Part shown: in pieces, positions 1,167 to 12,278 of the stretch | Position numbering within the stretch: the first letter of the stretch is position 1 | How the letters are laid out: every line of letters starts with the position of its first letter | Origin: a virus | Direction: 5' to 3' (one strand) | DNA: 64,000 nucleotides | IMG/VR virus record: IMGVR_UViG_3300045988_160113 | Coordinates: 1-64,000 of that record | Translations under genes and position numbers: made by a program | The notes under the pieces: generated by a model | Told to the model about the DNA's origin: nothing | The model's input: only the letters and a program-made list of their open reading frames with translations | The model's database searches: none

Positions 1167-1213
1167 ATTTTAGCTGAAATTCGAAACACTTATTGACAAA
1201 ATATACAAAACTA

Positions 1214-1243
1214 GGGCGGAGTTTACCTCCGTCCTTTCCTTTT
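1214..1243 (+). terminator. rho-independent terminator candidate
   Basis: GGGCGGAG-TTTAC-CTCCGTCC stem (one G-U pair) followed by TTTCCTTTT. Confidence 0.45.
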
Positions 1244-1273
1244 GCTCAGCGCGCAGCGTAATCACAGCGTAAT

Positions 1274-1302
1274 TTGACTTTTTATCAAAATTGTGATATA
1301 AT
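1274..1302 (+). promoter_or_regulatory. sigma70-type promoter with extended -10
   Basis: TTGACT (1274-1279), 17-nt spacer ending in TGA, TATAAT (1297-1302). The ATG of a 28-codon ORF lies 4 nt downstream. Confidence 0.5.
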
Positions 1303-1306
1303 TATT

Positions 1307-1393
1307 ATGTATAGACTTTTGCTTCCTTGGTATTTTTTCTTGTGTTTTTCTTTTGTGTTTTCTCTCACGCCGCGCAATTCAACCCACTATTAG
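1307..1393 (+). CDS. 28-aa hydrophobic peptide MYRLLLPWYFFLCFSFVFSLTPRNSTHY (speculative; type I toxin-like)
   Basis: ATG 4 nt after the -10 box, so it could be leaderless. No SD. Fully antisense to the transcript predicted from the minus-strand promoter at 1427-1455. Confidence 0.2.
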   Translation: MYRLLLPWYFFLCFSFVFSLTPRNSTHY

Positions 1394-1426
1394 TTAGACC
1401 TCTCTAACTCATGTATACTCTCTTCT

Positions 1427-1455
1427 ATTATATCACAATTTTATTTTATTTTCAA
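1427..1455 (-). promoter_or_regulatory. sigma70-type promoter convergent with 1274-1302
   Basis: Minus strand TTGAAA (1450-1455), 17-nt spacer, TATAAT (1427-1432). Shares the block AAAATTGTGATATAAT with the plus-strand promoter. No ORF with an RBS follows. Confidence 0.45.
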
Positions 1456-1544
1456 ATTTTCTCGCGCGTTGTAGCTTTTTCCAGCTCGCAAATCGTAGCT
1501 TATTTTAGCAGCTCGCAGCTCTCTAACACTTACTTCTTATAAGT

Positions 1545-1555
1545 GTAGTAGTCTG
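1545..1555. repeat. isolated left arm GTAGTAGTCTG of the array palindrome (right arm eroded)
   Basis: Exact 11-mer. The downstream sequence CCTTCGTTCTAC only weakly matches the right arm. Confidence 0.6.
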
Positions 1556-1586
1556 CCTTCGTTCTACGCGCATCCAAATTTGACAT

Positions 1587-1666
1587 GTAGTAGTCTGCCC
1601 CACTTTAGTGTGTTAGTGTGATGCCAAGGTGGTATGGTAGTGTGGTAAAGTGACCCAGAATACTAC
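1587..1666. repeat. split copy of the array palindrome with a 58-nt GT-rich insert
   Basis: Left arm GTAGTAGTCTG at 1587-1597, right arm CAGAATACTAC at 1656-1666. The inner inverted repeat CACTTTA/TAAAGTG extends the stem. Confidence 0.7.
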
Positions 1667-1680
1667 ACAGTCGCGCGAAC

Positions 1681-1707
1681 AAAAAGGGAGACGGTTTCCC
1701 GTCTCCC
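1681..1707 (-). terminator. rho-independent terminator of the 1724-2110 gene
   Basis: Minus strand GGGAGACGG-GAAA-CCGTCTCCC followed by TTTTT. Confidence 0.8.
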
Positions 1708-1723
1708 CATGGTGTTCTCTTGT

Positions 1724-2110
1724 TTACTCGGCGCTCGTCTCGGCGGCCTCGGCTTCCTGCCGCGCCTTATGCGCCGCCTTGCTGTCCTGCTTCTTGGCGC
1801 GGGCTTTCGCATCGCGCTCCATCTTCTTCTGCTTCTTTGCGGCGGCTTCCTCGGCCTTGCGCGCTTTTTCTGCCTGCTTCATGGTGAAGTCTTCGGCCAT
1901 GGAGTAACCATCATAGGGTTCGCCGTCGCGCGAGCCTGTCGGCACTTTCACCGTCAGGACAATGAACTCATCGTTCCCCTCGGAATCGACACAAGGGAGC
2001 GCGAACTCATTCGTGCCCGTCTGAAGCACTTCTTCACCAGCATTGACAAGGAAGTCACGAATGCGGGCCATGTAAGACACGCGCAGAGCGTCACGGGTGG
2101 ATTTAGACAT
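1724..2110 (-). CDS. hypothetical protein with K/A/E-rich C-terminal tail
   Basis: ORF trimmed to the ATG at 2110 (MSKSTRDAL), which is preceded by AAAGAGG. The longer ORF to 2200 would run through the promoter. Markedly GC-rich. Confidence 0.6.
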   Translation of the reverse strand: MSKSTRDALRVSYMARIRDFLVNAGEEVLQTGTNEFALPCVDSEGNDEFIVLTVKVPTGSRDGEPYDGYSMAEDFTMKQAEKARKAEEAAAKKQKKMERDAKARAKKQDSKAAHKARQEAEAAETSAE

Positions 2111-2232
2111 AGTATACCTCTTTCCGGGAATATTTATCCCTCTATAAGATTTTGAGATGAAAATTTGACTTTTGATTGAAAAGTCCGCCGCGCGGTTCAA
2201 TCAATCACTTTCTTTTCTCATCTTCTATAAAG

Positions 2233-2311
2233 AGTATAGCAAAAATTTGATGAAAAGTCAAGTTTTATTTTCTGATTTTTATGGAATGTAGTAGTCTCCT
2301 CAGACTACTAC
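2233..2311 (-). promoter_or_regulatory. early promoter plus array palindrome (unit 1)
   Basis: Minus strand TTGACT (2256-2261), N17, TATACT (2233-2238). Palindrome GTAGTAGTCT-CCTC-AGACTACTAC at 2288-2311, 26 nt upstream of the -35. Confidence 0.7.
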
Positions 2312-2339
2312 AAGGAAAGGACGAATGAACGTCCTTTTG

Positions 2340-2603
2340 TCAATCAAATTTGATTTCAATTTGGCCGATAGAAGAAAAGTCATCAAGACTGGTCATATAG
2401 AAAGTATCATCATCAGTGATGACTTCGATATTACCAAAGGTAGTGGAATAATCTTTGATGGCATCAACCAACTTATTCCATGCGGCTTCCTTTGCACGGA
2501 AACGTCTATGTTCAAGTTCATCGGCGATAACTAACTGTAAATCAGATAGTTCTTCGGCAGAAATTTCCTCGATAGAGTGAGCAAGCAAATCCTTAATTTC
2601 CAT
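2340..2603 (-). CDS. acidic hypothetical protein (87 aa)
   Basis: ORF with an AAAGGAGGA RBS. Followed by the GGACG...CGTCC hairpin. Confidence 0.6.
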   Translation of the reverse strand: MEIKDLLAHSIEEISAEELSDLQLVIADELEHRRFRAKEAAWNKLVDAIKDYSTTFGNIEVITDDDTFYMTSLDDFSSIGQIEIKFD

Positions 2604-2634
2604 TTTGTGTCCTCCTTTCCTTTACTGTACCCAT

Positions 2635-2704
2635 AGTATATCACACATTCTGCGTGCTGTCAATACTAAAGTGATGAAATGTAGTAGTCTGTCCAGACTA
2701 CTAC
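2635..2704 (-). promoter_or_regulatory. early promoter plus array palindrome (unit 2)
   Basis: TTGACA (2658-2663), N17, TGaTATACT (-10 at 2635-2640). Palindrome 2681-2704, 17-nt gap. Confidence 0.7.
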
Positions 2705-2748
2705 AACTTCGCGTGAGAAAAACCCACCTCTTCGGTGGGTATTTCTCT

Positions 2749-3600
2749 TTATAAGTCTGCGCGCCCAACAATGCGAAACGGAAATGCGACAATTCCCAAA
2801 TCAAACTTTTTCTTTGTTACTCGCATAAGTTCCGCGAAAATTTCACTTTCGATAGTCGCATCGTCAAGTGCCGTGTGTGCTTCATCAAATGCGTTATCAT
2901 TTTTGATAAAACGATAACACGTTTCCGCGCTCGTCTTATAATACTTTCCGCTTGCAGTAATCCAACCGTTGTTTACGCACGCCGCGCGGTAGTCATCACT
3001 GTTCAAAATGTGTTCGCACGAAAGTCCCCAAAGGTCAAACAAGGGATATTCACGACCGCGGAATCGGAAAATCGTTGTATCATCCGGCTGACGTTCTCCG
3101 CGTTTATACTTTACGCCGTCCGCGATATTATCACAAGTCCGTTCCTGATATCTCAACCACTCGTGAAAATCAGGGGAATACAGATAGGAAATATAAAGCT
3201 CGGTGAACGGAATCGCTTTCTTGAAATCAAATCCCGCATTATAAGCCGTTACACCCTCGACCGCTTCAAGTGCTTCGACAAGTTCCGCCGTTGCACTTTT
3301 CCAGTCGGTCAAAATAATCTCACCATGGTTGAGCATCTCAAGGTAGATGGGGCGCTTACTTGCGTAATAGGCGGTATCGAAAACAGAGGGAACAGAGAAA
3401 ATTTCGCTGATAAGGAAATTCTTGCGCGAGTAGACGCGCCCCTGAGCGTCGATAATTTGCCATCCAAGGTCGTAAATGAGCGGCTTAGTGACGGCGATTT
3501 GCTGACGAGCTTTGCCATCATACTTGTCAATAAAGGGAAGTGAGGCTGTTTCACAATCCAACACCATCCAATACTTGCGGCGGCGGTCAAGTTTCAACAT
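2749..3600 (-). CDS. DEDDh (DnaQ-like) 3'-5' exonuclease
   Basis: 283 aa. Exo I VLDCETAS, Exo II YNAGFDF, Exo III HTALDDATIESEIF. Confidence 0.75.
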   Translation of the reverse strand: MLKLDRRRKYWMVLDCETASLPFIDKYDGKARQQIAVTKPLIYDLGWQIIDAQGRVYSRKNFLISEIFSVPSVFDTAYYASKRPIYLEMLNHGEIILTDWKSATAELVEALEAVEGVTAYNAGFDFKKAIPFTELYISYLYSPDFHEWLRYQERTCDNIADGVKYKRGERQPDDTTIFRFRGREYPLFDLWGLSCEHILNSDDYRAACVNNGWITASGKYYKTSAETCYRFIKNDNAFDEAHTALDDATIESEIFAELMRVTKKKFDLGIVAFPFRIVGRADL

Positions 3601-3663
3601 TTTTCAAAATCTCCATTCAATTTACTAATCAAGGTTTACCATCGTTCCCTTGACTGTATACAC

Positions 3664-3742
3664 AGTATAGCATATACCGCGCACACTGTCAAGAAGAAAT
3701 TGAAAAATTTTGCTTGGTGTAGTAGTCTGACCAGACTACTAT
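3664..3742 (-). promoter_or_regulatory. early promoter plus array palindrome (unit 3)
   Basis: TTGACA (3687-3692), N17, TGcTATACT (-10 at 3664-3669). Palindrome 3719-3742 (last base T), 26-nt gap. Confidence 0.7.
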
Positions 3743-3762
3743 AAAAGGACGATTACTCGTCC
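3743..3762 (-). terminator. terminator hairpin with the stop codon in its loop
   Basis: Minus strand GGACGA-GTAA-TCGTCC then TTTT. The 5' stem encodes the C-terminal DE, and the TAA stop (3753-3755) sits in the loop. Confidence 0.7.
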
Positions 3763-4148
3763 TCGATATCCGTGCCAGTATTGACAATACGAGTGAGAGT
3801 ATCATCCCATTCTTTGGTATAATGCCAAGACTGACTATAATCGCTCCAGTAGTAATAACCCCGTCTAATCATACCATTAGTTGCGTCTGTCGGGTCGATA
3901 TAGCCATCTTTATCCATCATCTCACTAAAAAGAAAGAAAGCATTGGCATCCTTGTTTTGAATGATGGAAATATCATTGAAATCAATACCCTTTTCAAGAA
4001 AAGCTCGTCCATCCATTCCACCGATGCCGCGAACGAAAATCCAGAGTTCATTCTTGAAAGTGTCTGCGCACTTTTCTTCATGTGCACGACATTCATCAAT
4101 ATCGCTAAATTCTTCTCCGCAATAAGAACAAATATATTTGGTAATCAT
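3753..4148 (-). CDS. C2HC zinc-finger protein, paralog 1 of 3
   Basis: CSYCGEEFSDIDECRAHEEKC fits C-x2-C-x3-F-x8-H-x3-C. The C-terminal domain aligns with the 7374-7772 and 7875-8273 products. Confidence 0.65.
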   Translation of the reverse strand: MITKYICSYCGEEFSDIDECRAHEEKCADTFKNELWIFVRGIGGMDGRAFLEKGIDFNDISIIQNKDANAFFLFSEMMDKDGYIDPTDATNGMIRRGYYYWSDYSQSWHYTKEWDDTLTRIVNTGTDIEDE

Positions 4149-4179
4149 GGTGTATTCCCCTTTCCTTTACTGTATTTGT

Positions 4180-4237
4180 ATTATAGCACACATTCACACG
4201 ACTGTCAACTTTTGTAGTATTCTGTCCAGACTACTAC
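4180..4237 (-). promoter_or_regulatory. early promoter plus array palindrome (unit 4)
   Basis: TTGACA (4203-4208), N17, TGcTATAAT (-10 at 4180-4185). Palindrome GTAGTATTCTG-TC-CAGACTACTAC at 4214-4237, 5-nt gap. Confidence 0.75.
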
Positions 4238-4288
4238 AATGCCCGCACGCAAAACTTTCGTTCTGCGCGCGGACTATAGGAAAGGAAA

Positions 4289-4759
4289 TTAGAGAATGGC
4301 ATGGTTTTCAGAGACAAAATAACGTGCATTGTATTTGTCAATAAATTCTTTTACTTTTGCGGAATCGGCTTGTGTCTCGCAATAGAAAGTAAATAATGTG
4401 TGCTTCGGTGAAAGAACAATGTGTGAATGCGGAATGAATACCAATGAATTATCAATAATCGAACAATACGGCGTAGCAACAGTGAATTCGATTTTCCAAA
4501 GTTTATCCTTGCGCGACTTCATTTCACCATATTTGACGATGAAAACGCCGACTAAATTGCAAATAGAAGTGATGACTACTTTCTGCCAAAGTGGAAAATC
4601 CGCAACAGTATAGATAAGAACGATATTGTAATATCCGTAATATAATGCGGATACAACAGACGCAACCCACGGCCCGGACTTGATAGTCACGATTGACTTG
4701 ATTGTTGAAAAGATGACGTTTACGATAGTCAAAATCGTAAACAAGATGATAAGATTCAT
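4289..4759 (-). CDS. integral membrane protein, UPF0316/DUF2179-like
   Basis: 156 aa. N-terminal TM helices followed by a soluble C-terminal domain. ATGA overlap with the upstream gene. Family assignment is from memory only. Confidence 0.45.
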   Translation of the reverse strand: MNLIILFTILTIVNVIFSTIKSIVTIKSGPWVASVVSALYYGYYNIVLIYTVADFPLWQKVVITSICNLVGVFIVKYGEMKSRKDKLWKIEFTVATPYCSIIDNSLVFIPHSHIVLSPKHTLFTFYCETQADSAKVKEFIDKYNARYFVSENHAIL

Positions 4760-5028
4760 TTATTCCATTCCTCCCATTTATTTTTGATAGACTTTTCATG
4801 TTTTTCTTGCGCAATACCGTTTGCGATAACCTCTTTTACCGCCGCATCAATAGATGGGTATTGATTGAGAATAACATAGTCATAATAAAAAGACCGAGTT
4901 CGACCAAAGAATTTGCGGTTAGGACGAATAACTTCATTTACATAAATAGAAATTAGTCCATATGCTTCAATGTATACTTCAACCTCAAAGGTTCTTCCCT
5001 CATATTCATAAATTTTTGACTTACTCAT
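4756..5028 (-). CDS. hypothetical protein (90 aa)
   Basis: ORF preceded by the conserved leader AAAGGAAAGGAGAATAACA-ATG. Confidence 0.55.
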   Translation of the reverse strand: MSKSKIYEYEGRTFEVEVYIEAYGLISIYVNEVIRPNRKFFGRTRSFYYDYVILNQYPSIDAAVKEVIANGIAQEKHEKSIKNKWEEWNK

Positions 5029-5058
5029 TGTTATTCTCCTTTCCTTTACTGTATCTGT

Positions 5059-5127
5059 ATTATACTACCACGCACAGAAGAAGTCAATAGAAAGTTTTGA
5101 AGTGTAGTAGTCTGACCAGACTACTAA
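5059..5127 (-). promoter_or_regulatory. early promoter plus array palindrome (unit 5)
   Basis: TTGACT (5082-5087), N17, TATAAT (5059-5064). Palindrome 5104-5127 (last base A), 16-nt gap. Confidence 0.7.
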
Positions 5128-5140
5128 AAAGGGGGAGACA

Positions 5141-5593
5141 TTAGTCTCCCACAACGATGCTAAGGTAACGGACAATCATGTCCATTTCGCAACCCATGTC
5201 ATGCCAATCGCAAACCACATAGCCCACACGTTCACCCTCCGAAAAAATCGGATAAACGCCATAAGTGTTATTGAAAACAAACTGCTTGTTTTCAAATTCC
5301 CACTGGGTCGGGACGTAGGTCGGAAAGTTTTCCATACCTCGCAGTTTCCCAGTGGTATCATAAATTGCGATAGGACGCAGACCGGACTTTGATGCCATCA
5401 TGATAGCCGTTCGCAGAGCTTCCTCACTCAAAGAGCCAAGCACAGAATACCTCTGAAAACAAACGCAGTTGTCATCTCCAAGGAAGATTTCGAGCGGGTC
5501 GCCCTCGCGAATCTTCAAAGTCCGGCGAATCTCTTTCGGAATGACCACGCGACCCAAATCATCAATACGACGAATAATACCTGTTGCTTTCAT
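5141..5593 (-). CDS. SpoVT/AbrB-family transcriptional regulator
   Basis: The N-terminus MKATGIIRRIDDLGRVVIPKEIRRTLKIREGDPLEIF closely matches the SpoVT/AbrB swapped-hairpin domain. It is followed by a C-terminal domain of about 100 aa. Confidence 0.8.
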   Translation of the reverse strand: MKATGIIRRIDDLGRVVIPKEIRRTLKIREGDPLEIFLGDDNCVCFQRYSVLGSLSEEALRTAIMMASKSGLRPIAIYDTTGKLRGMENFPTYVPTQWEFENKQFVFNNTYGVYPIFSEGERVGYVVCDWHDMGCEMDMIVRYLSIVVGD

Positions 5594-5646
5594 ATTTTTT
5601 ACTTCCTTTCCGGTTTATAAGTGTTTTTCCCTCACTTGATGTATGT

Positions 5647-5704
5647 ATTATAACATATTACATGAGAAAGTCAAGTGTATGTAGTATTCTACCCAGACTA
5701 CTAC
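5647..5704 (-). promoter_or_regulatory. early promoter plus array palindrome (unit 6)
   Basis: TTGACT (5669-5674), N16, TATAAT (5647-5652). Palindrome GTAGTATTCTA-CC-CAGACTACTAC at 5681-5704, 6-nt gap. Confidence 0.7.
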
Positions 5705-5708
5705 CAAG

Positions 5709-5728
5709 AAAAGGACGATTACTCGTCC
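5709..5728 (-). terminator. terminator hairpin with the stop codon in its loop
   Basis: The same GGACGA-GTAA-TCGTCC-TTTT module as at 3743-3762. The TAA stop is at 5719-5721. Confidence 0.7.
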
Positions 5729-5991
5729 TCTTCCTCTTCTTCATCTATTTCAATTTCACCAATTAGTTCTTCTTGAATTTCTGCAAGTGCATCCCAATAT
5801 TGTTCTAAGAACCAACTATGAAATTCTTCTTTATCCATTCTGAGAAAATTGTTCAAAATTTTTTCAATAGTCAAACTCTCATCGAGTTTATCGGCAATTT
5901 CTCCAACATCGACAAAATCGAGTAAGTCCTCACGGCAATCTTCAATAGTTTCAAATTTTTCCTGACTGTATTCGTGCATATAATAAGTCAT
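5719..5991 (-). CDS. highly acidic hypothetical protein (90 aa)
   Basis: ORF with a conserved leader. C-terminus is EIDEEEEEDE. Confidence 0.6.
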   Translation of the reverse strand: MTYYMHEYSQEKFETIEDCREDLLDFVDVGEIADKLDESLTIEKILNNFLRMDKEEFHSWFLEQYWDALAEIQEELIGEIEIDEEEEEDE

Positions 5992-6018
5992 ATTTTTATC
6001 TCCTTTCCTTTTGATATT

Positions 6019-6076
6019 ATTATAACAGAAATAATAAAAAAGTCAAGTATTTGTAGTATTCTGCTCAGACTACTAC
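6019..6076 (-). promoter_or_regulatory. early promoter plus array palindrome (unit 7)
   Basis: TTGACT (6041-6046), N16, TATAAT (6019-6024). Palindrome GTAGTATTCTG-CT-CAGACTACTAC at 6053-6076, 6-nt gap. Confidence 0.7.
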
Positions 6077-6123
6077 ACAATTTTGATAAAAAGGGACGGG
6101 AATTTCTTCCCGTCCCCGTCCGA

Positions 6124-6522
6124 TTACTCGGCGTCCTCGGCGTCCTCAACCTCAACGGCATCAGTCATGGAAATGGAATAACCATTGACCTTGCCCTTTT
6201 TCGGAATCTTGACCTCGGACTTGACAACCTTGCCGGCCTCTCCAAGCTGACGCAGAAGCGAGCTTGCCTTGGCGGTGGTAATGCCAATATTCTCGGCAAT
6301 GTCCGCGGCAATCATCGGCTCGGACTGCGTGCTCAGAAACTCCATGATAGAAGCCTTGATAGGCTCATTCTCAATGGCAGTCTTGCTGGGCTTGCTGGAC
6401 TGCTTCTCCTTGCGCGCGGCGTTACGCATATCGAGCTTGGCAATCTGCTCAGCGGCGTAGGTGGTCAGTTCATCGGACAGGCTGGAATTGGCGACAGCAG
6501 TAAGAAACTCGCGGTTAGTCAT
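6124..6522 (-). CDS. putative winged-helix DNA-binding protein
   Basis: Trimmed to the ATG at 6522 (MTNREF), preceded by AAAGAGG. wHTH-like segment MIAADIAENIGITTAKASSLLRQLGEAGKVVK. GC-rich. Confidence 0.5.
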   Translation of the reverse strand: MTNREFLTAVANSSLSDELTTYAAEQIAKLDMRNAARKEKQSSKPSKTAIENEPIKASIMEFLSTQSEPMIAADIAENIGITTAKASSLLRQLGEAGKVVKSEVKIPKKGKVNGYSISMTDAVEVEDAEDAE

Positions 6523-6594
6523 AATATACCTCTTTCTTTGTTTGGCGTTGGTCGCCACCCTATTTTAGAAGTCTTTCTCTCAACTTCTGTAATA

Positions 6595-6623
6595 AGTATA
6601 TCACAGATTTTGGAGATTGTCAA
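6595..6623 (-). promoter_or_regulatory. promoter proximal to the 6124-6522 gene (no adjacent array palindrome)
   Basis: TTGACA (6618-6623), N17, TATACT (6595-6600). Confidence 0.55.
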
Positions 6624-6706
6624 GAGGGAAATTTCAAAATTTTGAAATTTTTTCGACTTAATCCTGATGGGAGCGACCCATCATTGAGTCGTTTCCCTCT
6701 TGACAT
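6618..6706. repeat. nested inverted repeats between two tandem promoters
   Basis: TGTCAAGAGGGAAA (6618-6631) pairs with TTTCCCTCTTGACA (6693-6706). Inside are the 22-nt palindrome AAATTTCAAAATTTTGAAATTT and the hairpin GATGGG-AGCGA-CCCATC. Confidence 0.7.
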
Positions 6707-6711
6707 TATGT

Positions 6712-6770
6712 AGTATAGCAAAGATTCGATGAAAAGTCAAGTTTCTGTAGTAGTCTGACCAGACTACTAC
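6712..6770 (-). promoter_or_regulatory. early promoter plus array palindrome (unit 8, no ORF immediately downstream)
   Basis: TTGACT (6735-6740), N17, TATACT (6712-6717), nearly identical to unit 1. Palindrome 6747-6770, 6-nt gap. About 90 nt of ORF-less structured sequence follows. Confidence 0.65.
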
Positions 6771-6786
6771 AACCGAAAAGGGGAAG

Positions 6787-7266
6787 TTACTCCCCTTTCA
6801 TCAAAAGACGGAGTAACTCCTCAATGATGTTTGCCTGTGTCGGGTCGATAGTCTCACCCAAATGCCAACCGGCACGCACTTTCTCATTATCATCAATGAG
6901 AATCGCATTCTTTGCGCGGTCACGCACACTGTCGGCCTTGGTCGCGCCATACTGGACGCCGTGAAAATGGTCATAGATGAAGCCCCACTTTTCAAGCCAT
7001 GCGCGCTTAGCTTCACGAACAGCATCCTTGTATTCCTCGCTGGAGTTCTTCGACAGCCATGTGATGATGTTGATTTCCCAGCCAGCAGCGCGCAGAAGCT
7101 CACAGACATAGTTGAGCAATTCCATGTCCCACATAGGTGCGGCGTTCTCATAGGGAGAGGTATCTTCCGCACGCAGTTTGGAGAGCCAGTTGTCAACGGA
7201 GTAAGTCGCTCCGAGTGTGCCGTCCATATCGAAGCAAATCATTTTCGTGTTTTTTTCGTCTTTCAT
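6787..7266 (-). CDS. HAD-superfamily phosphatase, 5'(3')-deoxyribonucleotidase-like
   Basis: Trimmed to the ATG at 7266. Motif I FDMDGTL, with ILIDDN near the C-terminus. Confidence 0.6.
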   Translation of the reverse strand: MKDEKNTKMICFDMDGTLGATYSVDNWLSKLRAEDTSPYENAAPMWDMELLNYVCELLRAAGWEINIITWLSKNSSEEYKDAVREAKRAWLEKWGFIYDHFHGVQYGATKADSVRDRAKNAILIDDNEKVRAGWHLGETIDPTQANIIEELLRLLMKGE

Positions 7267-7299
7267 TCGTGTTTTCTTCCTTTCCTTTATTGTATACAT

Positions 7300-7358
7300 A
7301 GTATAGCACGAACCATAATGAATGTCAAGTGTATGTAGTATTCTGTCCAGACTACTAC
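7300..7358 (-). promoter_or_regulatory. early promoter plus array palindrome (unit 9)
   Basis: TTGACA (7323-7328), N17, TATACT (7300-7305). Palindrome GTAGTATTCTG-TC-CAGACTACTAC at 7335-7358, 6-nt gap. Confidence 0.7.
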
Positions 7359-7360
7359 AT

Positions 7361-7386
7361 AAAAGAGGACGAATTATTCGTCCTCT
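7361..7386 (-). terminator. terminator hairpin whose 3-nt loop is the stop codon
   Basis: Minus strand AGAGGACGAA-TAA-TTCGTCCTCT. The loop at 7374-7376 is the TAA stop. Confidence 0.6.
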
Positions 7387-7772
7387 CCAATGCTCTGATT
7401 CATAGAATCGAGAATTTCATGGCACTTGTTCATTCGTTGAACAACATCATACCACACATTGGAATCGGAATCATAAGCATAAAATTTACTGCCATATCCG
7501 ATATCCTCGCTGAGAAAATAATAACCTGCTTCATCGAACATTTCTGACAGAAAATTCCATGCTTCTTCATTAGCACAATAAATAAACTCAACATCGTCGA
7601 TAGAATCGGGGCTAATGGGAAGCTCAACCATTTTGCCACAAATCTTTTTGAAGAAATGAACCTTTTTACTCCATTTCAAAGATTTATGCTCGAATTCATG
7701 CTGACGACATTCAGATTCATTGGTGAATTTTTCTCCGCAAATGTCGCAAACATAAAAAATCTGTCTATTCAT
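7374..7772 (-). CDS. C2H2 zinc-finger protein, paralog 2 of 3
   Basis: Trimmed to the ATG at 7772 (MNRQIFYVC). CDICGEKFTNESECRQHEFEH fits C-x2-C-x12-H-x3-H. Confidence 0.65.
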   Translation of the reverse strand: MNRQIFYVCDICGEKFTNESECRQHEFEHKSLKWSKKVHFFKKICGKMVELPISPDSIDDVEFIYCANEEAWNFLSEMFDEAGYYFLSEDIGYGSKFYAYDSDSNVWYDVVQRMNKCHEILDSMNQSIGEDE

Positions 7773-7801
7773 TGTATATTCCCCTTTCCTTTGATGATAT
7801 G

Positions 7802-7860
7802 AGTATAACATACTATCACATAATTGTCAAGAAAGTGTAGTAGTCTACTCAGACTACTAC
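7802..7860 (-). promoter_or_regulatory. early promoter plus array palindrome (unit 10)
   Basis: TTGACA (7825-7830), N17, TATACT (7802-7807). Palindrome GTAGTAGTCTA-CT-CAGACTACTAC at 7837-7860, 6-nt gap. Confidence 0.7.
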
Positions 7861-7874
7861 ACCAAAAGGGGGAA

Positions 7875-8273
7875 TTAGTTCCCCCTGATGACTTTATTGA
7901 TTTTGTTGCTAAGCCCAATAAAGTAGTTCATCTTCTTTTCGAGGCAGAACCAGTCACTTGTATCATAGTCATAAACAAAGATATGACCATCGGCGCGGAT
8001 ATCTTTTGTGGGATAACCGTATCCTCTCCAGTCAAATGCTTCCTCAATGATATCCCAAGCCTCATCAGTGCCATCGCAATAAATTATGGTGCACTCATCA
8101 GCAGATTCACAAGTAAGAGGAAGTTCAATAAAGATGCCATCCTTTTCTTTCATAAACTTGACGCGATTTTTGACTAGCTCAAACTTGTGTTCCCATTCGT
8201 GCTGGAAGCAGTCTTCACTATCATCGAAGACCTCGCCGCAGTAATCGCAGATATAAGTAGTATTTTCCGTCAC
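7875..8273 (-). CDS. C2H2 zinc-finger protein, paralog 3 of 3
   Basis: GTG start at 8273, 6 nt after AAAGGAAAGGAGAA. CDYCGEVFDDSEDCFQHEWEH. Confidence 0.6.
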   Translation of the reverse strand: MTENTTYICDYCGEVFDDSEDCFQHEWEHKFELVKNRVKFMKEKDGIFIELPLTCESADECTIIYCDGTDEAWDIIEEAFDWRGYGYPTKDIRADGHIFVYDYDTSDWFCLEKKMNYFIGLSNKINKVIRGN

Positions 8274-8304
8274 TGTAAATTCTCCTTTCCTTTTTTGTAA
8301 ATAT

Positions 8305-8363
8305 AATATACTCCAATTTTGCGTATTTGTCAAGTTTACGTAGTAGTCTGTCCAGACTACTAC
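8305..8363 (-). promoter_or_regulatory. early promoter plus array palindrome (unit 11)
   Basis: TTGACA (8328-8333), N17, TATATT (8305-8310). Palindrome 8340-8363, 6-nt gap. Confidence 0.65.
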
Positions 8364-8375
8364 ACTTTCACTTTA

Positions 8376-8439
8376 CGCGCGCTTGTGGAAAATCTACAAA
8401 GTCCGGCATAAACTTTTATAAAAAATCCACAAGCGCGCG
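8376..8439. repeat. 14-bp perfect GC-rich inverted repeat CGCGCGCTTGTGGA / TCCACAAGCGCGCG with a 36-nt loop
   Basis: Arms at 8376-8389 and 8426-8439, directly after the stop of the 8444-8761 gene. Confidence 0.8.
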
Positions 8440-8443
8440 AGAA

Positions 8444-8761
8444 TCAGTGTTTACTATTCTTCAAACTTGAATACTTCTTATAATTGTGTAACAAAGTTCT
8501 ATAAACTTCTTTTGGAATCTGCATACCATCATAGAAAACTGCTACTTGGTCGAAAGTAATCAAATACGCAGTAATTACAATATGGTTCTCCCCTACAATC
8601 AAACAACATCCCGTATCAGTCAAACACTTTTTCACTCCACCAACTGCTGGTCTTTCATCAATAATTTCGCCCAGTCCATCACCTAACAAAATTTCCAGCA
8701 TACGGTCATCTCGTTCTTCTCTGATGTGACGCGACCAAATCAAGTTCGACATTTTTTCCAT
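8444..8761 (-). CDS. hypothetical protein (105 aa)
   Basis: ORF with its own RBS GAAAGGTGA. More AT-rich than neighbouring cassettes. Confidence 0.55.
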   Translation of the reverse strand: MEKMSNLIWSRHIREERDDRMLEILLGDGLGEIIDERPAVGGVKKCLTDTGCCLIVGENHIVITAYLITFDQVAVFYDGMQIPKEVYRTLLHNYKKYSSLKNSKH

Positions 8762-8890
8762 ACTTTATCACCTTTCTATCAGGACAGGCGGCGCGGCGTA
8801 TAAGGTATCTATTCCACGGAAATCTCAATCTCCCCTTATCCGCGCACCTTTATGAAACTTTCTATTGTTTCTCCTGTCCTTTGATGATAT

Positions 8891-8949
8891 GAGTATAACA
8901 TACTATATTGATAATGTCAAGAGAGTGTAGTAGTCTGACCAGACTACTA
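8891..8949 (-). promoter_or_regulatory. early promoter plus array palindrome (unit 12)
   Basis: TTGACA (8914-8919), N17, TATACT (8891-8896). Palindrome 8926-8949, 6-nt gap. The leader carries the conserved RBS AAAGGACAGGAGA but no start codon at the usual distance. Confidence 0.65.
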
Positions 8950-8965
8950 CACAAAAGAGAAACGC

Positions 8966-9334
8966 TCAATGCGCCTCTCTCCAAATTTTCATCACTGTAT
9001 CATCTTCAAATGAATCAGTGTCATTATCTTCAATCCATAACAGTAAGAAGTCATTATCTTCGACTTCAATGTCACTAACCGCCCAATATTGACCCTGTTC
9101 GTCAAGCAAAACCAACTTGTCTCCGTCTCGTCTGTACAGCTCAGCTCCAACAAAACGAATACTACCACGACGCTCGCCGCCGCACCATTGCTCGATGACA
9201 CTCAGGTCGAACGAAACAGGAGCTTCCTCACAGGCCATAGCTTCAGGGGTCTTGAGCGCCGCGAAAGCCAGAATGATGACAAGAGGAAGAGTAATGAAGA
9301 TAACCTTGATAATAGAATTGATAACAGTTTTCAT
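8966..9334 (-). CDS. secreted or membrane-anchored hypothetical protein
   Basis: 122 aa. N-terminal hydrophobic segment IIKVIFITLPLVIILAFAAL followed by AMA-C. Confidence 0.55.
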   Translation of the reverse strand: MKTVINSIIKVIFITLPLVIILAFAALKTPEAMACEEAPVSFDLSVIEQWCGGERRGSIRFVGAELYRRDGDKLVLLDEQGQYWAVSDIEVEDNDFLLLWIEDNDTDSFEDDTVMKIWREAH

Positions 9335-9382
9335 AATTGATTCCTTTCCGGTTTATGATGTTTTCCTTCACCTGATAGATAC

Positions 9383-9440
9383 ATTATACCACGTTTTACT
9401 TATCTGTCAACCCCTTGTAGTAGTCTGACCAGACTACTAC
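9383..9440 (-). promoter_or_regulatory. early promoter plus array palindrome (unit 13)
   Basis: TTGACA (9405-9410), N16, TATAAT (9383-9388). Palindrome 9417-9440, 6-nt gap. Confidence 0.7.
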
Positions 9441-9454
9441 ACAATAATGGAGAC

Positions 9455-9619
9455 TTACGTCTCCAAATTTTCCATTAGCATTTCATAAATAGTCATATAT
9501 TCCTCATAACTTCCGGCGTGCATATTACAAAAATTGTTGATGTTTTCCTCGCTGAAATCTCCATCGCAGAACCAGATAGCAATGCTTTTTCTCAACTGTT
9601 CAATGGTCATAGTTTTCAT
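9455..9619 (-). CDS. small hypothetical protein (54 aa, below the ORF-track cutoff)
   Basis: Hand-translated as MKTMTIEQLRKSIAIWFCDGDFSEENINNFCNMHAGSYEEYMTIYEMLMENLET. Has the conserved leader. The TAA stop lies in the loop of GGAGAC-GTAA-GTCTCC. Confidence 0.5.
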   Translation of the reverse strand: MKTMTIEQLRKSIAIWFCDGDFSEENINNFCNMHAGSYEEYMTIYEMLMENLET

Positions 9620-9641
9620 TTCCTTTCTTTATTGTATCTAC

Positions 9642-9699
9642 ATTATATCATACAATATCTAAAAGTCAACCCCTTGTAGTAGTCTGGACAGACTACTAC
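9642..9699 (-). promoter_or_regulatory. early promoter plus array palindrome (unit 14)
   Basis: TTGACT (9664-9669), N16, TATAAT (9642-9647). Palindrome GTAGTAGTCTG-GA-CAGACTACTAC at 9676-9699, 6-nt gap. Confidence 0.7.
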
Positions 9700-9726
9700 A
9701 CAGAGAGAGGGAGAAATTCCCCCTCT

Positions 9727-10002
9727 TTATTTGCTCCAAGAAATGAAAAGTGTGTTGTCCACGTAGGAGGCTTTATAGCCATAATCCTGCATAATATCTT
9801 TACAAGCTCGCTTGACGTCTACTCCATTTAGCGAAGTAAGATTACAAGCGTAACACGTTTCTCCCGCCTCTGCCATACGCTCAATTTCCGGCATGATGTG
9901 GTCTTCGATAAATGCGCGAGCAAGGGCATTATTTTTAGCTTGGATTTCTCTGCGAGCTTCCTTGGCTTTGCTTGTCATTTCATAAGCATATTTGATTTTC
10001 AT
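9727..10002 (-). CDS. hypothetical protein (91 aa)
   Basis: Trimmed to the ATG at 10002 (MKIKYAYE) after AAAGGAAAGGGAGAA. Confidence 0.55.
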   Translation of the reverse strand: MKIKYAYEMTSKAKEARREIQAKNNALARAFIEDHIMPEIERMAEAGETCYACNLTSLNGVDVKRACKDIMQDYGYKASYVDNTLFISWSK

Positions 10003-10032
10003 AGTATTTTCTCCCTTTCCTTTGATGTTTTT

Positions 10033-10061
10033 ATTATAACATATAGGGCTTGTTTTGTCAA
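10033..10061 (-). promoter_or_regulatory. early promoter without palindrome (unit 15)
   Basis: TTGACA (10056-10061), N17, TATAAT (10033-10038). Only 19 nt separate it from the upstream stop codon. Confidence 0.55.
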
Positions 10062-10080
10062 GTCTTATATGCAATTTCTT

Positions 10081-10389
10081 TTAGCAATAGGCGAGATTCC
10101 CGCGCGCCCAGCCATAAATGCTAATTTGCGCGCAGGCTCGACCAATTTCCAGCGCGAGCTTCTTGGTATTCACGCGCTTGGAGCGGTCAACATAATACAC
10201 ACCATTTTCCAGCCAAACACCGCAGTTACCATCATAGGACTTGACAGCGCGCATAGCTTCTTCGGGAGTAGAGCATTCGACGCCTTCGGTAGCTACTTGC
10301 CAGCCCGTCTTGTAGCGGATGATACGACCTGCGCGCAGAGTAAGACCGTCGTTGTTAGCGAGTTTACGAATTGAACGAACATTTATCAT
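10081..10389 (-). CDS. hypothetical protein (102 aa)
   Basis: Trimmed to the ATG at 10389 (MINVRS) after AAAGGAAAGGAGAA. GC-rich and contains four GCGCGC-type sites. Confidence 0.55.
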   Translation of the reverse strand: MINVRSIRKLANNDGLTLRAGRIIRYKTGWQVATEGVECSTPEEAMRAVKSYDGNCGVWLENGVYYVDRSKRVNTKKLALEIGRACAQISIYGWARGNLAYC

Positions 10390-10418
10390 TGTATGTTCTC
10401 CTTTCCTTTGATGATACG

Positions 10419-10477
10419 AGTATACCATACAATAATATATTTGTCAATCCCTCGTAGTAGTCTGCCCAGACTACTAC
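10419..10477 (-). promoter_or_regulatory. early promoter plus array palindrome (unit 16, outermost copy)
   Basis: TTGACA (10442-10447), N17, TATACT (10419-10424). Palindrome 10454-10477, 6-nt gap. Confidence 0.7.
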
Positions 10478-10513
10478 ACCGACCGACGAATAAAAGAGTG
10501 AATATTCACTCTC

Positions 10514-10777
10514 CTATTCAACTATGATGATTTTCTTTTTTGTATCAATAGAAACAGAATATTTTAAATCAAAATTGAAACTATCCCAAAAAATCGCTGT
10601 ATAACCGTTCGGAATTTTTTTCCATCCGCTTCGCCAGTCTTTTTCTATTTCTTCATGTTCAAATAAATACTTTTCAAGATTCTTTTTCAATTTATTACTT
10701 TCTTTATTATAAAACCAACTGAAACGCCCGACAATTCCGGTTTTTGCATCAATAATATTTACTTTATAAATCGTCAT
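10514..10777 (-). CDS. hypothetical protein (87 aa, AT-rich)
   Basis: ORF with RBS AAAGAGGAA. Confidence 0.55.
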   Translation of the reverse strand: MTIYKVNIIDAKTGIVGRFSWFYNKESNKLKKNLEKYLFEHEEIEKDWRSGWKKIPNGYTAIFWDSFNFDLKYSVSIDTKKKIIIVE

Positions 10778-10825
10778 AGTTTATTCCTCTTTTCGTAAAT
10801 AGGGGAGAATTCTCTCCCCTATTTA

Positions 10826-11149
10826 CTATACTTCTTTCCAATCATCGCTATAAAGTGTCTCTAACTGTTCAATCAATTCCATCGCCTTTTCAAGACGCTC
10901 CATTCTGTCTTCGGCCTTGTTTCTATCCTCAACTAACACTTGCGCGATATCATACAGGGCATCGACCTTGCCTTCTTCTTCTCCCGCATCTTCGGCATCG
11001 TTCGCGGCTTTGAATGCTTTCTGTTCCTCATCCCAAGCCTTATCAACGGCGGCGCTCCACTCGGACTTGTGTCCATACAAGTCACGCCATTCAGCACTCA
11101 AAGCAATACGCAGGCGGTCAGCAGTGGTTTTATAGATATCAATTGTCAT
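10826..11149 (-). CDS. acidic coiled-coil-like hypothetical protein (107 aa)
   Basis: ORF with RBS GAGGGGA. Followed by the hairpin AGGGGAGA-ATTC-TCTCCCCT at 10801-10820. Confidence 0.55.
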   Translation of the reverse strand: MTIDIYKTTADRLRIALSAEWRDLYGHKSEWSAAVDKAWDEEQKAFKAANDAEDAGEEEGKVDALYDIAQVLVEDRNKAEDRMERLEKAMELIEQLETLYSDDWKEV

Positions 11150-11164
11150 TGTAAATCCCCTCTC

Positions 11165-11290
11165 TTAGCGGCGAGCCTTGCGGCTCTTGATATACTTTTT
11201 TACTTCCCATTCGGCCCAGTCAATCATAGCTCCCATGCCCAGGACGCTAAACCCGATGACAATCAGCACCAACTCATTATGTAAACCCAT
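11165..11290 (-). CDS. small membrane protein (41 aa)
   Basis: Trimmed to the ATG at 11290 (MGLHNELVLIVIGFSVLGMGAMI...) after AAGAGGTGG. One TM helix and a basic tail. Confidence 0.45.
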   Translation of the reverse strand: MGLHNELVLIVIGFSVLGMGAMIDWAEWEVKKYIKSRKARR

Positions 11291-11309
11291 TCTATCCACC
11301 TCTTTCTTA

Positions 11310-11336
11310 GGTGATGAGGCTTTACGCCTCATCACC
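11310..11336 (-). terminator. strong hairpin with the stop codon in its loop (attenuator or terminator; no U-tract)
   Basis: Minus strand GGTGATGAGGC-GTAAA-GCCTCATCACC. The TAA stop of the 11322-11888 gene lies in the loop. Confidence 0.4.
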
Positions 11337-11888
11337 AAGTCCCAACCGTTCGGCCAGCCAGTCAACACGCTTACCTGCTGTCAGGTTGAACGGGAGTCTA
11401 CCGCGCGCGTTCACATAGTCCATGACCTCGGCTTTCTTGATAAGCCATACACCAACAGCGTTGACCAGCAGTGTAAACTCGCGTTCGCTCGGAGTAGCAA
11501 GTGCGTTACAGGTGAGAGAGGTCTTGACCTCGCAAGGGATACAGCCCATTTTGAAGTCGTAGCCGTCGCCAAACGTCTTGCTCACAGCTTCCTTGCTCAC
11601 GCCAAAGTGGTATTTTACAACACACTCCACGATAGAACCAGCGTTGCAGAGGGAGAAGCCGCGCTCATCATCACCGCGGCAACCCTCGACCGTCAGCTCA
11701 ACGTCAGCCGGAACGGACATGAGAACGGATTCGAGCTTTTCCATTTTGCGGATTGCTTTCGCACAGTTAGAACGACCAATGCGATTTTCAGTGGTTTTCA
11801 AGTCGTTTTGACGTTCAATTTCGCGCTCGCAGATATCAAACCATGCGCCCGCGGTTTTAGTGCTAACGTTTGAATAAGTATTGTTCAT
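11322..11888 (-). CDS. hypothetical protein (188 aa)
   Basis: GC-rich ORF with RBS AAAGGGGAA. First gene downstream of the promoter at 11946-11973. Confidence 0.6.
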   Translation of the reverse strand: MNNTYSNVSTKTAGAWFDICEREIERQNDLKTTENRIGRSNCAKAIRKMEKLESVLMSVPADVELTVEGCRGDDERGFSLCNAGSIVECVVKYHFGVSKEAVSKTFGDGYDFKMGCIPCEVKTSLTCNALATPSEREFTLLVNAVGVWLIKKAEVMDYVNARGRLPFNLTAGKRVDWLAERLGLGDEA

Positions 11889-11945
11889 TTTTGTTCCCCT
11901 TTTCGATTTTATTTTGTCAAGTGGTTTTCCCTCTTGACATTATTC

Positions 11946-11973
11946 ATTATAGCAGACTACGACATAAAGTCAA
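11946..11973 (-). promoter_or_regulatory. sigma70-type promoter for the 11888-10514 gene group
   Basis: TTGACT (11968-11973), N16, TATAAT (11946-11951). The leader resembles the one at 6690-6717. Confidence 0.55.
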
Positions 11974-11982
11974 GGGGATTTT

Positions 11983-12023
11983 GAGAAAAAGATGCACAAA
12001 AGGGAGGGGTAGTTTTTGTGCAT
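11983..12023 (-). terminator. rho-independent terminator
   Basis: Minus strand ATGCACAAAA-loop-TTTTGTGCAT followed by CTTTTTCTC. Confidence 0.6.
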
Positions 12024-12122
12024 TTTACCGATACATGAAAATGTGGACGACGTGAGGTGGACATTTCGCACTACGAAATTTGAAAATGAACTTTTACTAT
12101 CTAAATACTATTCAATCAACTA

Positions 12123-12278
12123 TCAACTCTTCCCCTTTACAATGCTCTTTACCATTATCCCAATCACGATAAACCCAGCAATCACCTGCAAAGGGCTTGT
12201 AAAAAAACCAATGATAATATTCGGTAAATGCCATAACAAAGCTAAAGCAATTAGACCTAAAATAAAAATTTTATACAT
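12123..12278 (-). CDS. small membrane protein (51 aa, below the ORF-track cutoff)
   Basis: Hand-translated as MYKIFILGLIALALLWHLPNIIIGFFTSPLQVIAGFIVIGIMVKSIVKGKS. RBS GAAAGGA. Confidence 0.35.
   Translation of the reverse strand: MYKIFILGLIALALLWHLPNIIIGFFTSPLQVIAGFIVIGIMVKSIVKGKS

Follow-up and report, generated by a model that had tools for sequence, protein, structure and literature searches.

Composite motifs termed PeSLs (promoter-early stem-loops), in which the stem-loop is a tested terminator, serve as recombination linkers in T4-type phages (Arbiol et al. 2010, PMC2839356; Comeau et al. 2014, PMC4122927). Stoperators of cluster A mycobacteriophages are 13-bp, asymmetric, orientation-dependent sites for a monomeric protein, with an effect on elongation in transcribed spacers (PMC9283540, PMC6550527). 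In phi29, the p4/p6 switch operates at the early A2c/A2b and late A3 promoters (PMC3100819). The subject of this study is a 64,000-nt stretch (referred to as the window; IMG/VR record IMGVR_UViG_3300045988_160113, positions 1 to 64,000) from the ~89-kb genome of an uncultured human-gut phage, ~25 kb of which lie outside the window. Its early region contains 15 copies of a 24-bp palindrome, each upstream of its own minus-strand promoter. On balance, sequence comparison makes it probable that this palindrome is a multi-copy operator, at which a sequence-specific protein would control ~15 early promoters, and also a joint between gene cassettes.

Several other systems serve as points of reference. 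The conserved inverted repeats (CIRs) of phiC31 are reportedly multi-copy operators, and anti-CRISPR-associated (Aca) regulators are said to damp strong anti-CRISPR (Acr) promoters through an inverted repeat. The hix and gix sites are crossover sites of serine recombinases, with inverted arms of ~12 bp around a 2-bp central overlap, and RepA/RepE-type initiators are found with iterons and an inverted-repeat operator. The effect of phi29 p4 depends on contact with the C-terminal domain of the RNA polymerase alpha subunit (alpha-CTD), and a strong early promoter is repressible from upstream.

The whole window was searched for GTAGTAGTCTG-NN-CAGACTACTAC, allowing up to 3 mismatches, with dinucleotide-preserving shuffles as the control. 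Fifteen sites with 0-2 mismatches each were found within 2288-10477; the shuffles and the rest of the 64 kb gave none. A flanking T and A lengthen the symmetry to 26 bp (T-GTAGTAGTCTG-NN-CAGACTACTAC-A, i.e., 12+2+12; full form, TGTAGTAGTCTGGTCAGACTACTACA), and four copies (4214, 5681, 6053, and 7335) carry the variant arm GTAGTATTCTG. The initial annotation of this DNA had listed the same 15 copies (save 8926, which is corrected to 8927) and the same four variants, and the eroded or split copies that it placed past the array were recovered by a half-site search as a lone half-site and a pair of split arms. Its limits for the array were right for the copies themselves; the system reaches farther, to the first early promoter at ~11946-11973. 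The palindrome folds into a hairpin with an 11-bp stem (-8.7 kcal/mol using DNA parameters; z = -4.4).

All 15 copies are followed by a near-consensus promoter of the sigma-A type (10-12 of 12 consensus positions), with TTGAC(A/T) as the -35 box after each copy and a TG extension in 13 of the 15. A AAAGGAAAGGAG-type leader was found in most modules, and a hairpin with a T-run lies ahead of nearly every copy, at a variable distance of 0-16 nt; terminator-like sites numbered 26 vs 8.3 in shuffles. An independent consensus scan of 1200-12200 returned 19 strong minus-strand promoters, 15 with a palindrome and four without (11973, referred to as P1, 10061, 6623, and 1455). The gap between palindrome and -35 box is 6 nt in ten copies, 5 nt in one, 16 nt in one, 17 nt in one, and 26 nt in two. 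Promoter scans thus bore out what had been described beforehand, namely, a promoter and conserved short leader for each copy (the leader in most), a terminator belonging to the preceding gene, and gap lengths (6/5/16-17/26 nt) about one helical turn apart.

Exact-motif scans yielded relatives on 2 IMG/VR contigs and at 31 human-gut metagenome loci, and the comparison set comprised 220 modules (204 distinct) on 34 contigs, oriented by transcription. As a caveat, a similarity threshold (up to 4 mismatches) decided which copies were included; the spread seen was far tighter than this threshold. A sigma-70-type promoter was present on exactly one side in 215 of the 220 modules. Gaps in this set fell into classes of 5-7 nt (n = 139), 16-17 nt (n = 37), and 25-27 nt (n = 23), and values of 8-15 and 18-24 nt never occurred. 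The 6-nt gap had 64 different sequences and one length, indicating that its length, not its sequence, is constrained. Longer gaps belonged to several unrelated sequence families, with an AT content of 72-73% (vs 57% overall), A and T tracts, and an UP-element-like appearance. The palindrome centre precedes the -35 box by ~18 bp, to which the longer classes add one or two helical turns; by conventional promoter numbering, it falls at ~-53.5, -63.5/-64.5, or -73.5/-74.5 relative to the start site. The distance to the -35 box takes only fixed, quantised values and that to the terminator varies, and these data supported the assignment of the palindrome to the downstream promoter, not the upstream terminator.

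The gap class tracked the downstream gene more strongly than the upstream gene (mutual-information z, 17.8 vs 10.8), and orthologues (gene families denoted F) changed class between genomes: family F1 had a gap of 6 nt in six genomes and 16-17 nt in six, the ratio for F9 was 7:3, and F5, F36, and F20 also switched. Intermediate values were absent among these class-switching orthologues, and helical phasing, as had been proposed for the window, is therefore under selection. Among the sequence comparisons, we regard class switching as the strongest evidence that the palindrome would have to occupy one helix face relative to the promoter.

Within the 220 modules, palindrome positions 2-10 and 15-23 were essentially invariant, except for position 18; variation was also seen at positions 1, 11, and 14 and in the central dinucleotide. 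The arms are accordingly almost invariant, as first described, but the accompanying claim that only the central dinucleotide varies did not hold (positions 1, 11, 14, and 18). A C-to-A change at position 18 was present in 26% of copies, always in the promoter-proximal arm, and weakened the hairpin from -8.7 to -5.8 kcal/mol. Its partner G7 never changed to match, indicating that the arms do not evolve as a base-paired stem. In 91 modules of identical geometry, the palindrome contained 1.78 bits/position, as against 0.19 in the upstream flank, 0.54 in the 6-nt gap, and 0.57 in the promoter spacer, and the whole 24 bp carried ~43 bits. Because information was high in the palindrome and low in the flank, gap, and spacer, the palindrome is an island of selection and not a by-product of whole-module homogenisation. 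Among arrays with the palindrome of the window (referred to as type A), the array proteins diverged to 36-89% identity while the palindrome stayed invariant. An exact scan with the 22-base motif of one genome each of 185,579 bacterial and archaeal species gave no match and no prophage copies, and no RNA family in Rfam matched the palindrome. No close relative was found among GenBank phages, none of which had an F1 or F20 homologue, and no recurring palindrome was found in Enterocloster phage CB473P1.

Arrays of more distant lineages differ in the palindrome. Distant relatives of the winged helix-turn-helix (wHTH) protein of family F1 led to related early arrays with other elements. Locus L044 had type-A arms with one additional central base. 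L045, L046, and L047 (type B) had another palindrome, TTAGACGT-N3-ACGTCTAA; between its centre and the -35 box lay ~18-20.5 bp, and variants at +10 and +20 occurred. The two type-B lineages shared only F11, F1, F20, and F3, at 29-51% identity, and were about as distant from each other as from type A; they had the same palindrome. L048 and L049 contained a short GC-rich palindrome, CGCCCGGGCG ((C)GCCCGGGCG), as a third kind of repeated element, ~20-50 nt ahead of the -35 boxes of many promoters and without evident phasing; a TGTAAAGGG-N4-CCCTTTACA hairpin often came before it in L048. Type-B phages also carried a second, divergent F1 member (L045, 8415-8771; L047, 10359-10694, minus there), convergent at the array end, in the position of the type-A Rep-like gene.

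P1, the first early promoter, has no upstream palindrome. A half-site search found a one-mismatch half-site at 11953-11963, including GTAGTCTG at the end of the P1 spacer and abutting the -10 box. This 8-mer was invariant in the window and 8 relatives, in which the 5' part of the spacer varied, and was present, with one mismatch allowed, in the spacers of only 3 of 199 palindrome-linked promoters. Locus L027 was considered as an additional case and dropped: its promoter spacer would be 22 nt. The location of the half-site inside the promoter core tilts the model towards repression, since a factor binding the arm would occlude P1.

We propose that a dimeric or higher-order protein, encoded by the phage or host, would bind the 24-bp palindrome (26 bp with the T...A flanks) and contact RNA polymerase from a fixed helix face, probably in the alpha-CTD/UP-element zone. 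This contact would jointly control ~15 otherwise constitutive, near-consensus sigma-A early promoters. Down-regulation or early shut-off seems more likely than activation because the promoters are already near-consensus with an extended -10 box and because P1 carries the core half-site. The composite module (terminator, palindrome, promoter, and leader) would also act as a patch of homology, by which single-gene cassettes may be gained, lost, duplicated, and moved.

The initial annotation had proposed three kinds of binder encoded in the array, and none of them fitted. The protein at 5141-5593, suggested as a SpoVT/AbrB-type regulator, is a true full-length SpoVT homologue (PDB 2w1t, E = 2e-21), the first ~40 residues of which are almost identical to Bacillus subtilis SpoVT; the N-terminal DNA-binding domain is nearly unchanged. 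L043, with 93-99% identity to the window in most core genes, retains 16 palindromes but lacks the SpoVT-like gene in the 16 kb of early region retrieved for it, and type-B arrays lack the gene as well; its product probably acts on the control of host sporulation, not on phage promoters. The wHTH protein (6124-6522, F1) was present in every array spanning its position and belongs to a family of 1,118 clusters at 50% identity. Its recognition helix was near-identical in the window (type A), P0124 (type B), and P0138 (type C), and differed between two type-B proteins, a pattern that does not follow the palindrome type and is a misfit with a specificity determinant; its AlphaFold2 (AF2) model was unusable (predicted local distance difference test score, pLDDT, 56). 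The C2H2 or zinc-finger-like family was not universal, being missing from some arrays (L028). The reading as an operator for a dimeric regulator was therefore upheld as regards a promoter-linked, phased, and selected site at ~15 units, but not as regards the named binders.

Further candidates were also considered. A Rep-like protein of 233 amino acids (383-1084), preceded by four direct repeats with a 22-bp period, was 98-100% conserved in L038 and L043, and one of its iterons resembled the palindrome half-site. It was rejected: L050/L051 have a 57% identical protein with quite different iterons, yet type-A palindromes. The locus at 127-1084 on the plus strand has a sigma-A promoter (TTGACT-17-TATAAT, 127-160), AACGYAGTAATTTTTGGAAC repeats (~262-356), and a double-wHTH/ScpB-like protein (HTH_Crp_2, E = 9e-6). 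It looks like an initiator-plus-iteron replication origin, and the differences in L050 and L051 indicate a swappable module that has no relation to the palindrome. The product of the first early gene, the orphan F12, was limited to types A and A' in its distribution. It had no match in Pfam, PHROG, or PDB, its mediocre AF2 model (pLDDT 66) gave no Foldseek hit, and hhalign found no link to the first gene of L047; a putative, unverified D...ExK motif was noticed in it. F20 had no Pfam family and no PDB match, and weakly matched a PHROG of unknown function.

Open reading frame clustering over all contigs showed that the order of the backbone is conserved and that the presence of single cassettes between palindromes differs from genome to genome. 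Family F41 was located before or after the SpoVT-like gene, F33 at two positions, and F2/F6 in inverted order; F9 was tandemly duplicated in L016, and the number of zinc-finger-like paralogues varied. Counted from the palindrome start, homology blocks tended to begin between -40 and +19, and ended at +20 to +39 (just past the palindrome) or +80 to +119 (ribosome-binding site (RBS)/ATG). Some terminator hairpins were common to unrelated cassettes. The predictions that breakpoints of gene gain and loss in related phages would fall at the palindromes, and that the cassettes were compositionally diverse (28-59% GC), were both borne out. The GC extremes were 28% (10514-10777) and 59% (1724-2113), and the universally conserved array genes were the GC-rich ones. 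Breakpoints at intergenic modules are expected to some degree, since whole-gene indels must be intergenic.

In another explanation, the palindrome is primarily a recombination element, maybe a cruciform, for a nuclease or recombinase such as the RuvC-like protein (44602-45342), F12, or an enzyme encoded outside the window, and its link to promoters reflects co-inheritance. The cassette gain and loss, the F9 duplication, the reordering of F41, F33, and F2/F6, and the concentration of homology breakpoints at the modules all agree with it, as do the 12+2+12 structure with a variable central dinucleotide, similar to hix and gix, and the ~43 bits, suiting an enzyme with a long recognition site. The window also encodes a RuvC-like resolvase and homing endonucleases, and PeSLs are a precedent (PMC2839356). 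However, this explanation does not need a fixed length and helical phase to the -35 box, with orthologues jumping only among the 6, 16-17, and 26-27 classes, and leaves the P1 half-site unexplained. Module breakpoints are expected from whole-gene indels, and ordinary homologous recombination over the ~90-bp module would suffice. Searches of the window by tblastn with rough Hin and gamma-delta resolvase probes and by Pfam scans gave no serine or tyrosine recombinase, and no integrase was detected there either. We consider a primarily recombinational role unlikely; a second, recombination-related constraint on the palindrome sequence may exist. A function as RNA, i.e., a hairpin in read-through transcripts that backs up the terminator, insulates the promoter, or serves RNase III-type processing or stability, would agree with the position 0-16 nt behind terminators, the stable 11-bp stem, and the tested terminator activity of the PeSL stem-loop (PMC2839356). 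It is nevertheless very improbable: the sequence itself is invariant, not merely its pairing; the 204 distinct copies contain no compensatory changes, and the sole common variant breaks a pair; no U-run follows the palindrome, and a separate canonical terminator is already ahead of it. The spacing, fixed to the promoter and variable to the terminator, is also the opposite of that predicted for a 3'-end element.

In a sub-case of the operator reading, the phage exploits a transcription factor of its host that recognises the palindrome; phages sharing a host would converge on a 'super-consensus', and the palindrome types would represent different hosts or factors. The invariance of the palindrome against diverging type-A array proteins, its identity in the two type-B lineages, and the lack of any phage protein following the palindrome type are in line with this sub-case, which we regard as distinctly unlikely given the absence of the 22-base motif from the species genomes and the results with the relaxed 16-base core, which in 596 Gbp of reference genomes gave 25 scattered singletons in unrelated taxa, not above chance. 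Native host sites could be too degenerate for these motif scans. A broader and somewhat unlikely version is that a new or unrecognised DNA-binding family (candidates F12 and F20) or a host factor reads the palindrome and touches the polymerase from an upstream position kept among lineages (centre ~18-20.5 bp from the -35 box), that lineages swap specificity (A, B, and perhaps C) and keep the architecture, and that the site seeds cassette exchange. Several results weigh against control of the promoters by a protein bound to the palindrome, including the failure to find native host sites in the 596 Gbp. The ~43 bits are far above the need of an operator in a ~89-kb phage, and a second constraint may be present. 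A centre at -53.5 is non-canonical for a class I or class II activator. No half-site was found in the first promoter of type-B phage L047. None of the array proteins compared across palindrome types tracked the type, and no candidate binder (SpoVT-like, wHTH, zinc-finger-like, Rep-like, or F12) passed. The distance from centre to -35 box was ~2.5 bp longer in L045/L046 than in L047, both type B. In L027 (3206-3290 and 4774-4798), 24-bp and 25-bp (3-nt centre) type-A forms were present in one genome, with two copies 24 nt apart, and a rigid dimer would not tolerate this coexistence. A multi-copy operator that also joins cassettes is still the reading that we favour.

Table 1. Palindrome modules and associated elements of the early region; coordinates refer to the window unless a relative is named.
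Feature	Coordinates	Strand	Description
Module 1	10419-10477	-	Palindrome 10454-10477, gap 6 nt, promoter 10447->10419; gene 10081-10389
Module 2	9642-9699	-	Palindrome 9676-9699, gap 6 nt, promoter 9669->9642; gene 9455-9610
Module 3	9383-9440	-	Palindrome 9417-9440, gap 6 nt, promoter 9410->9383; hairpin-bearing leader, gene 8966-9334
Module 4	8892-8950	-	Palindrome 8927-8950, gap 6 nt, promoter 8920->8892; long leader, gene 8444-8761
Module 5	8305-8363	-	Palindrome 8340-8363, gap 6 nt, promoter 8333->8305; zinc-finger-like gene 7875-8273
Module 6	7802-7860	-	Palindrome 7837-7860, gap 6 nt, promoter 7830->7802; zinc-finger-like paralogue 7374-7772
Module 7	7300-7358	-	Palindrome 7335-7358 (proximal arm CAGAATACTAC), gap 6 nt, promoter 7328->7300; HAD/deoxyribonucleotidase-like gene 6787-7266
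Module 8	6595-6770	-	Palindrome 6747-6770, gap 6 nt, promoter 6740->6712; second promoter 6623->6595 without palindrome; wHTH gene 6124-6522
Module 9	6019-6076	-	Palindrome 6053-6076 (variant proximal arm), gap 6 nt, promoter 6046->6019; gene 5719-5991
Module 10	5647-5704	-	Palindrome 5681-5704 (variant proximal arm), gap 6 nt, promoter 5674->5647; SpoVT homologue 5141-5593
Module 11	5059-5127	-	Palindrome 5104-5127, AT-rich gap 16 nt, promoter 5087->5059; genes 4756-5028 and 4289-4759
Module 12	4180-4237	-	Palindrome 4214-4237 (variant proximal arm), gap 5 nt, promoter 4208->4180; zinc-finger-like gene 3753-4148
Module 13	3664-3742	-	Palindrome 3719-3742, AT-rich gap 26 nt, promoter 3692->3664; gene 2749-3600 (283 amino acids)
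Module 14	2635-2704	-	Palindrome 2681-2704, gap 17 nt, promoter 2663->2635; gene 2340-2603
Module 15	2233-2311	-	Palindrome 2288-2311, AT-rich gap 26 nt, promoter 2261->2233; F20, last array gene, 1724-2113
First early promoter P1	11946-11973	-	No upstream palindrome; operon 11888->10514 (F12, small membrane protein, F7, F23)
Consensus promoter inside array	10033-10061	-	No palindrome; gene 9727-10002
Array-end split palindrome	1587-1666	-	Distal arm 1656-1666 and proximal arm 1587-1597 split by 58-nt insert (own hairpin, CA-rich repeats); no promoter after it
Lone proximal-type half-site CAGACTACTAC	1545-1555	-	31 nt past split palindrome
Split-palindrome counterparts	Window 1587-1666; L006 6343-6420; L016 13300-13394; L038 14633-14735

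The split palindrome at the array end was kept in all type-A relatives, with an insert of 55-81 nt. The insert begins with a small hairpin (ctttag-N4-ctaaag or cactttac...), and its length varies via the number of CA-rich accacactaccat units. Some relatives, not including the window, had a lone distal half-site and one or two cacactttagtgtgcgaaagtg hairpins ahead of the first palindrome of the array. The longer 5' leaders on the minus strand (~11945-11890, 6712-6523, 5647-5594, 3664-3601, and 9383-9335) had in common a small hairpin with a purine-rich loop (e.g., GTCAAG-agggaaaacca-CTTGAC and AAGTG-agggaaaaa-CACTT), followed in two of them by ataaaccggaaaggaa; this hairpin may be a shared translational or RNA-stability operator. 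The protein from gene 2749-3600 has motifs that, in our reading, look DnaQ-like. Convergent promoters are present at 1210-1455 (plus strand, TTGACT-17-TATAAT at 1274-1302; minus strand, extended -10 at 1455-1427), flanking ~200 nt with no convincing open reading frame and with a bidirectional terminator hairpin (1213-1235). This pair had no Rfam match, was kept in L050 and L051, and may be an antisense or non-coding RNA pair.

Early genes occupy ~12.0-1.7 kb on the minus strand, and structural genes (terminase, portal, and tape measure) extend to ~44.6 kb, the tape-measure protein identifying a long-tailed phage. A replication/nucleotide block at 44.6-64 kb (minus strand) contains DNA polymerase, RecJ-like, DnaB-like, primase, NrdD, dUTPase, RuvC-like resolvase, and GIY-YIG endonuclease genes; no transfer RNAs were found in the window. 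The GC content was 42% in the early region (1545-12000) vs 33% in the rest of the window. The nearest cultured phages (Geobacillus GR1, Enterocloster bolteae phages, and SPbeta-like phages) were 36-38% identical in DNA polymerase. We infer an anaerobic, spore-forming Firmicute as the host because of the promoter and RBS types, the SpoVT homologue, and NrdD. Divergent from the early array, the gene at 13332-14576 (plus strand) encodes 414 amino acids, the C-terminal 150 of which match a phage sigma-factor PHROG; the protein was 25% identical to annotated sigma factors of large Enterococcus phages and 35% identical in type-B L047, and is likely a middle/late sigma factor. GIY-YIG homing-endonuclease-like genes are located at 41979-42635 (plus strand) and 53329-54150 (minus strand), the second with several helix-turn-helix repeats, and in some relatives an HNH/NUMOD4 endonuclease gene lies between F29 and F12, just upstream of P1 (L040, 1624-2412).

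No part of a virulent phage genome is understood less well than its early or host-takeover region, which is rich in orphans, with unclear coordination and turnover. The present locus is a testable case, in which a ~43-bit site is phased to ~15 strong promoters, replaced by another palindrome, similarly far upstream, in sister lineages, and situated at cassette boundaries. Its binder, once named, would be a master switch of the early programme in abundant human-gut Firmicute phages and would yield a compact, portable operator/promoter pair for Gram-positive synthetic biology. If a new binder family were involved, a portable promoter, operator, and recombination joint would organise the host-takeover regions of a large group of uncultured Firmicute phages.

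Compared with known systems, the array resembles phiC31 CIRs and stoperators in that a short conserved site occurs ~15-30 times between genes, one protein serves (here, would serve) many units, and the site sequence differs by lineage; many conserved inverted repeats at early promoters, as in the CIR type, were found here. It differs from stoperators in being a 24-26-bp palindrome after terminators and upstream of promoters, and from temperate actinophages in that no sign of lysogeny was seen (no integrase in the window and no prophage copies). As with phi29 p4, a phage protein in a Firmicute would act on a strong sigma-A promoter from a site ahead of its -35 box; however, p4 has few sites, which are not perfect palindromes of such length, it acts together with p6, and no p4 homologue was found here. 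The Aca systems also appear comparable in combining a strong early promoter with an inverted repeat as a control site. Their operators overlap the promoter and number 1-2 per locus, whereas the 15 repeats here end 5-27 nt upstream of the -35 box, a position unlike that in the Acr/Aca-style loci to which the initial annotation likened the layout. In contrast to an integron attC array, with its integrase and with promoterless cassettes that each end in an imperfect palindrome, every cassette has its own promoter, and no tyrosine recombinase was found in the window. The geometry matches that of a serine-recombinase crossover site (12+2+12), and the window, beyond which lie another ~25 kb of the genome, yielded no serine recombinase. 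The 233-amino-acid wHTH protein (383-1084) behind iterons, one of which resembles a half-site, is reminiscent of RepA/RepE; however, L050 and L051 have other iterons and an initiator with 57% identity but an unchanged palindrome.

In its proposed function, the element is closest to the multi-copy actinophage operators (CIRs and stoperators), to phi29 p4 as regards upstream control of strong sigma-A promoters, and to PeSLs as regards the linking of cassettes; it belongs to none of these families, nor to the Aca operators. In PeSLs, the terminator is the stem-loop, whereas here the predicted terminator is a separate, variable hairpin with a T-run, the conserved palindrome itself having none; an additional invariant 24-26-bp palindrome is inserted between terminator and promoter at a quantised, phased distance. 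PeSLs belong to T4-like myoviruses of Gram-negative hosts, and the present phage is long-tailed, with Firmicute-type promoters and RBSs, and is not T4-like. On the other hand, both are intergenic modules of ~90-100 bp that consist of a stem-loop/terminator (predicted here), an AT-rich stretch (in some copies), a strong sigma-70-type early promoter, and a Shine-Dalgarno sequence. In both, they lie on either side of individual small orphans within a hyperplastic early region, in which indels, replacements, and reordering break at the modules. The likeness to PeSLs that was drawn from the window alone was thereby supported, with the modules bounding exchangeable cassettes in the PeSL manner, and the comparative data carry the notion that regulatory cassettes act as recombination linkers to phages other than the T4-like ones.

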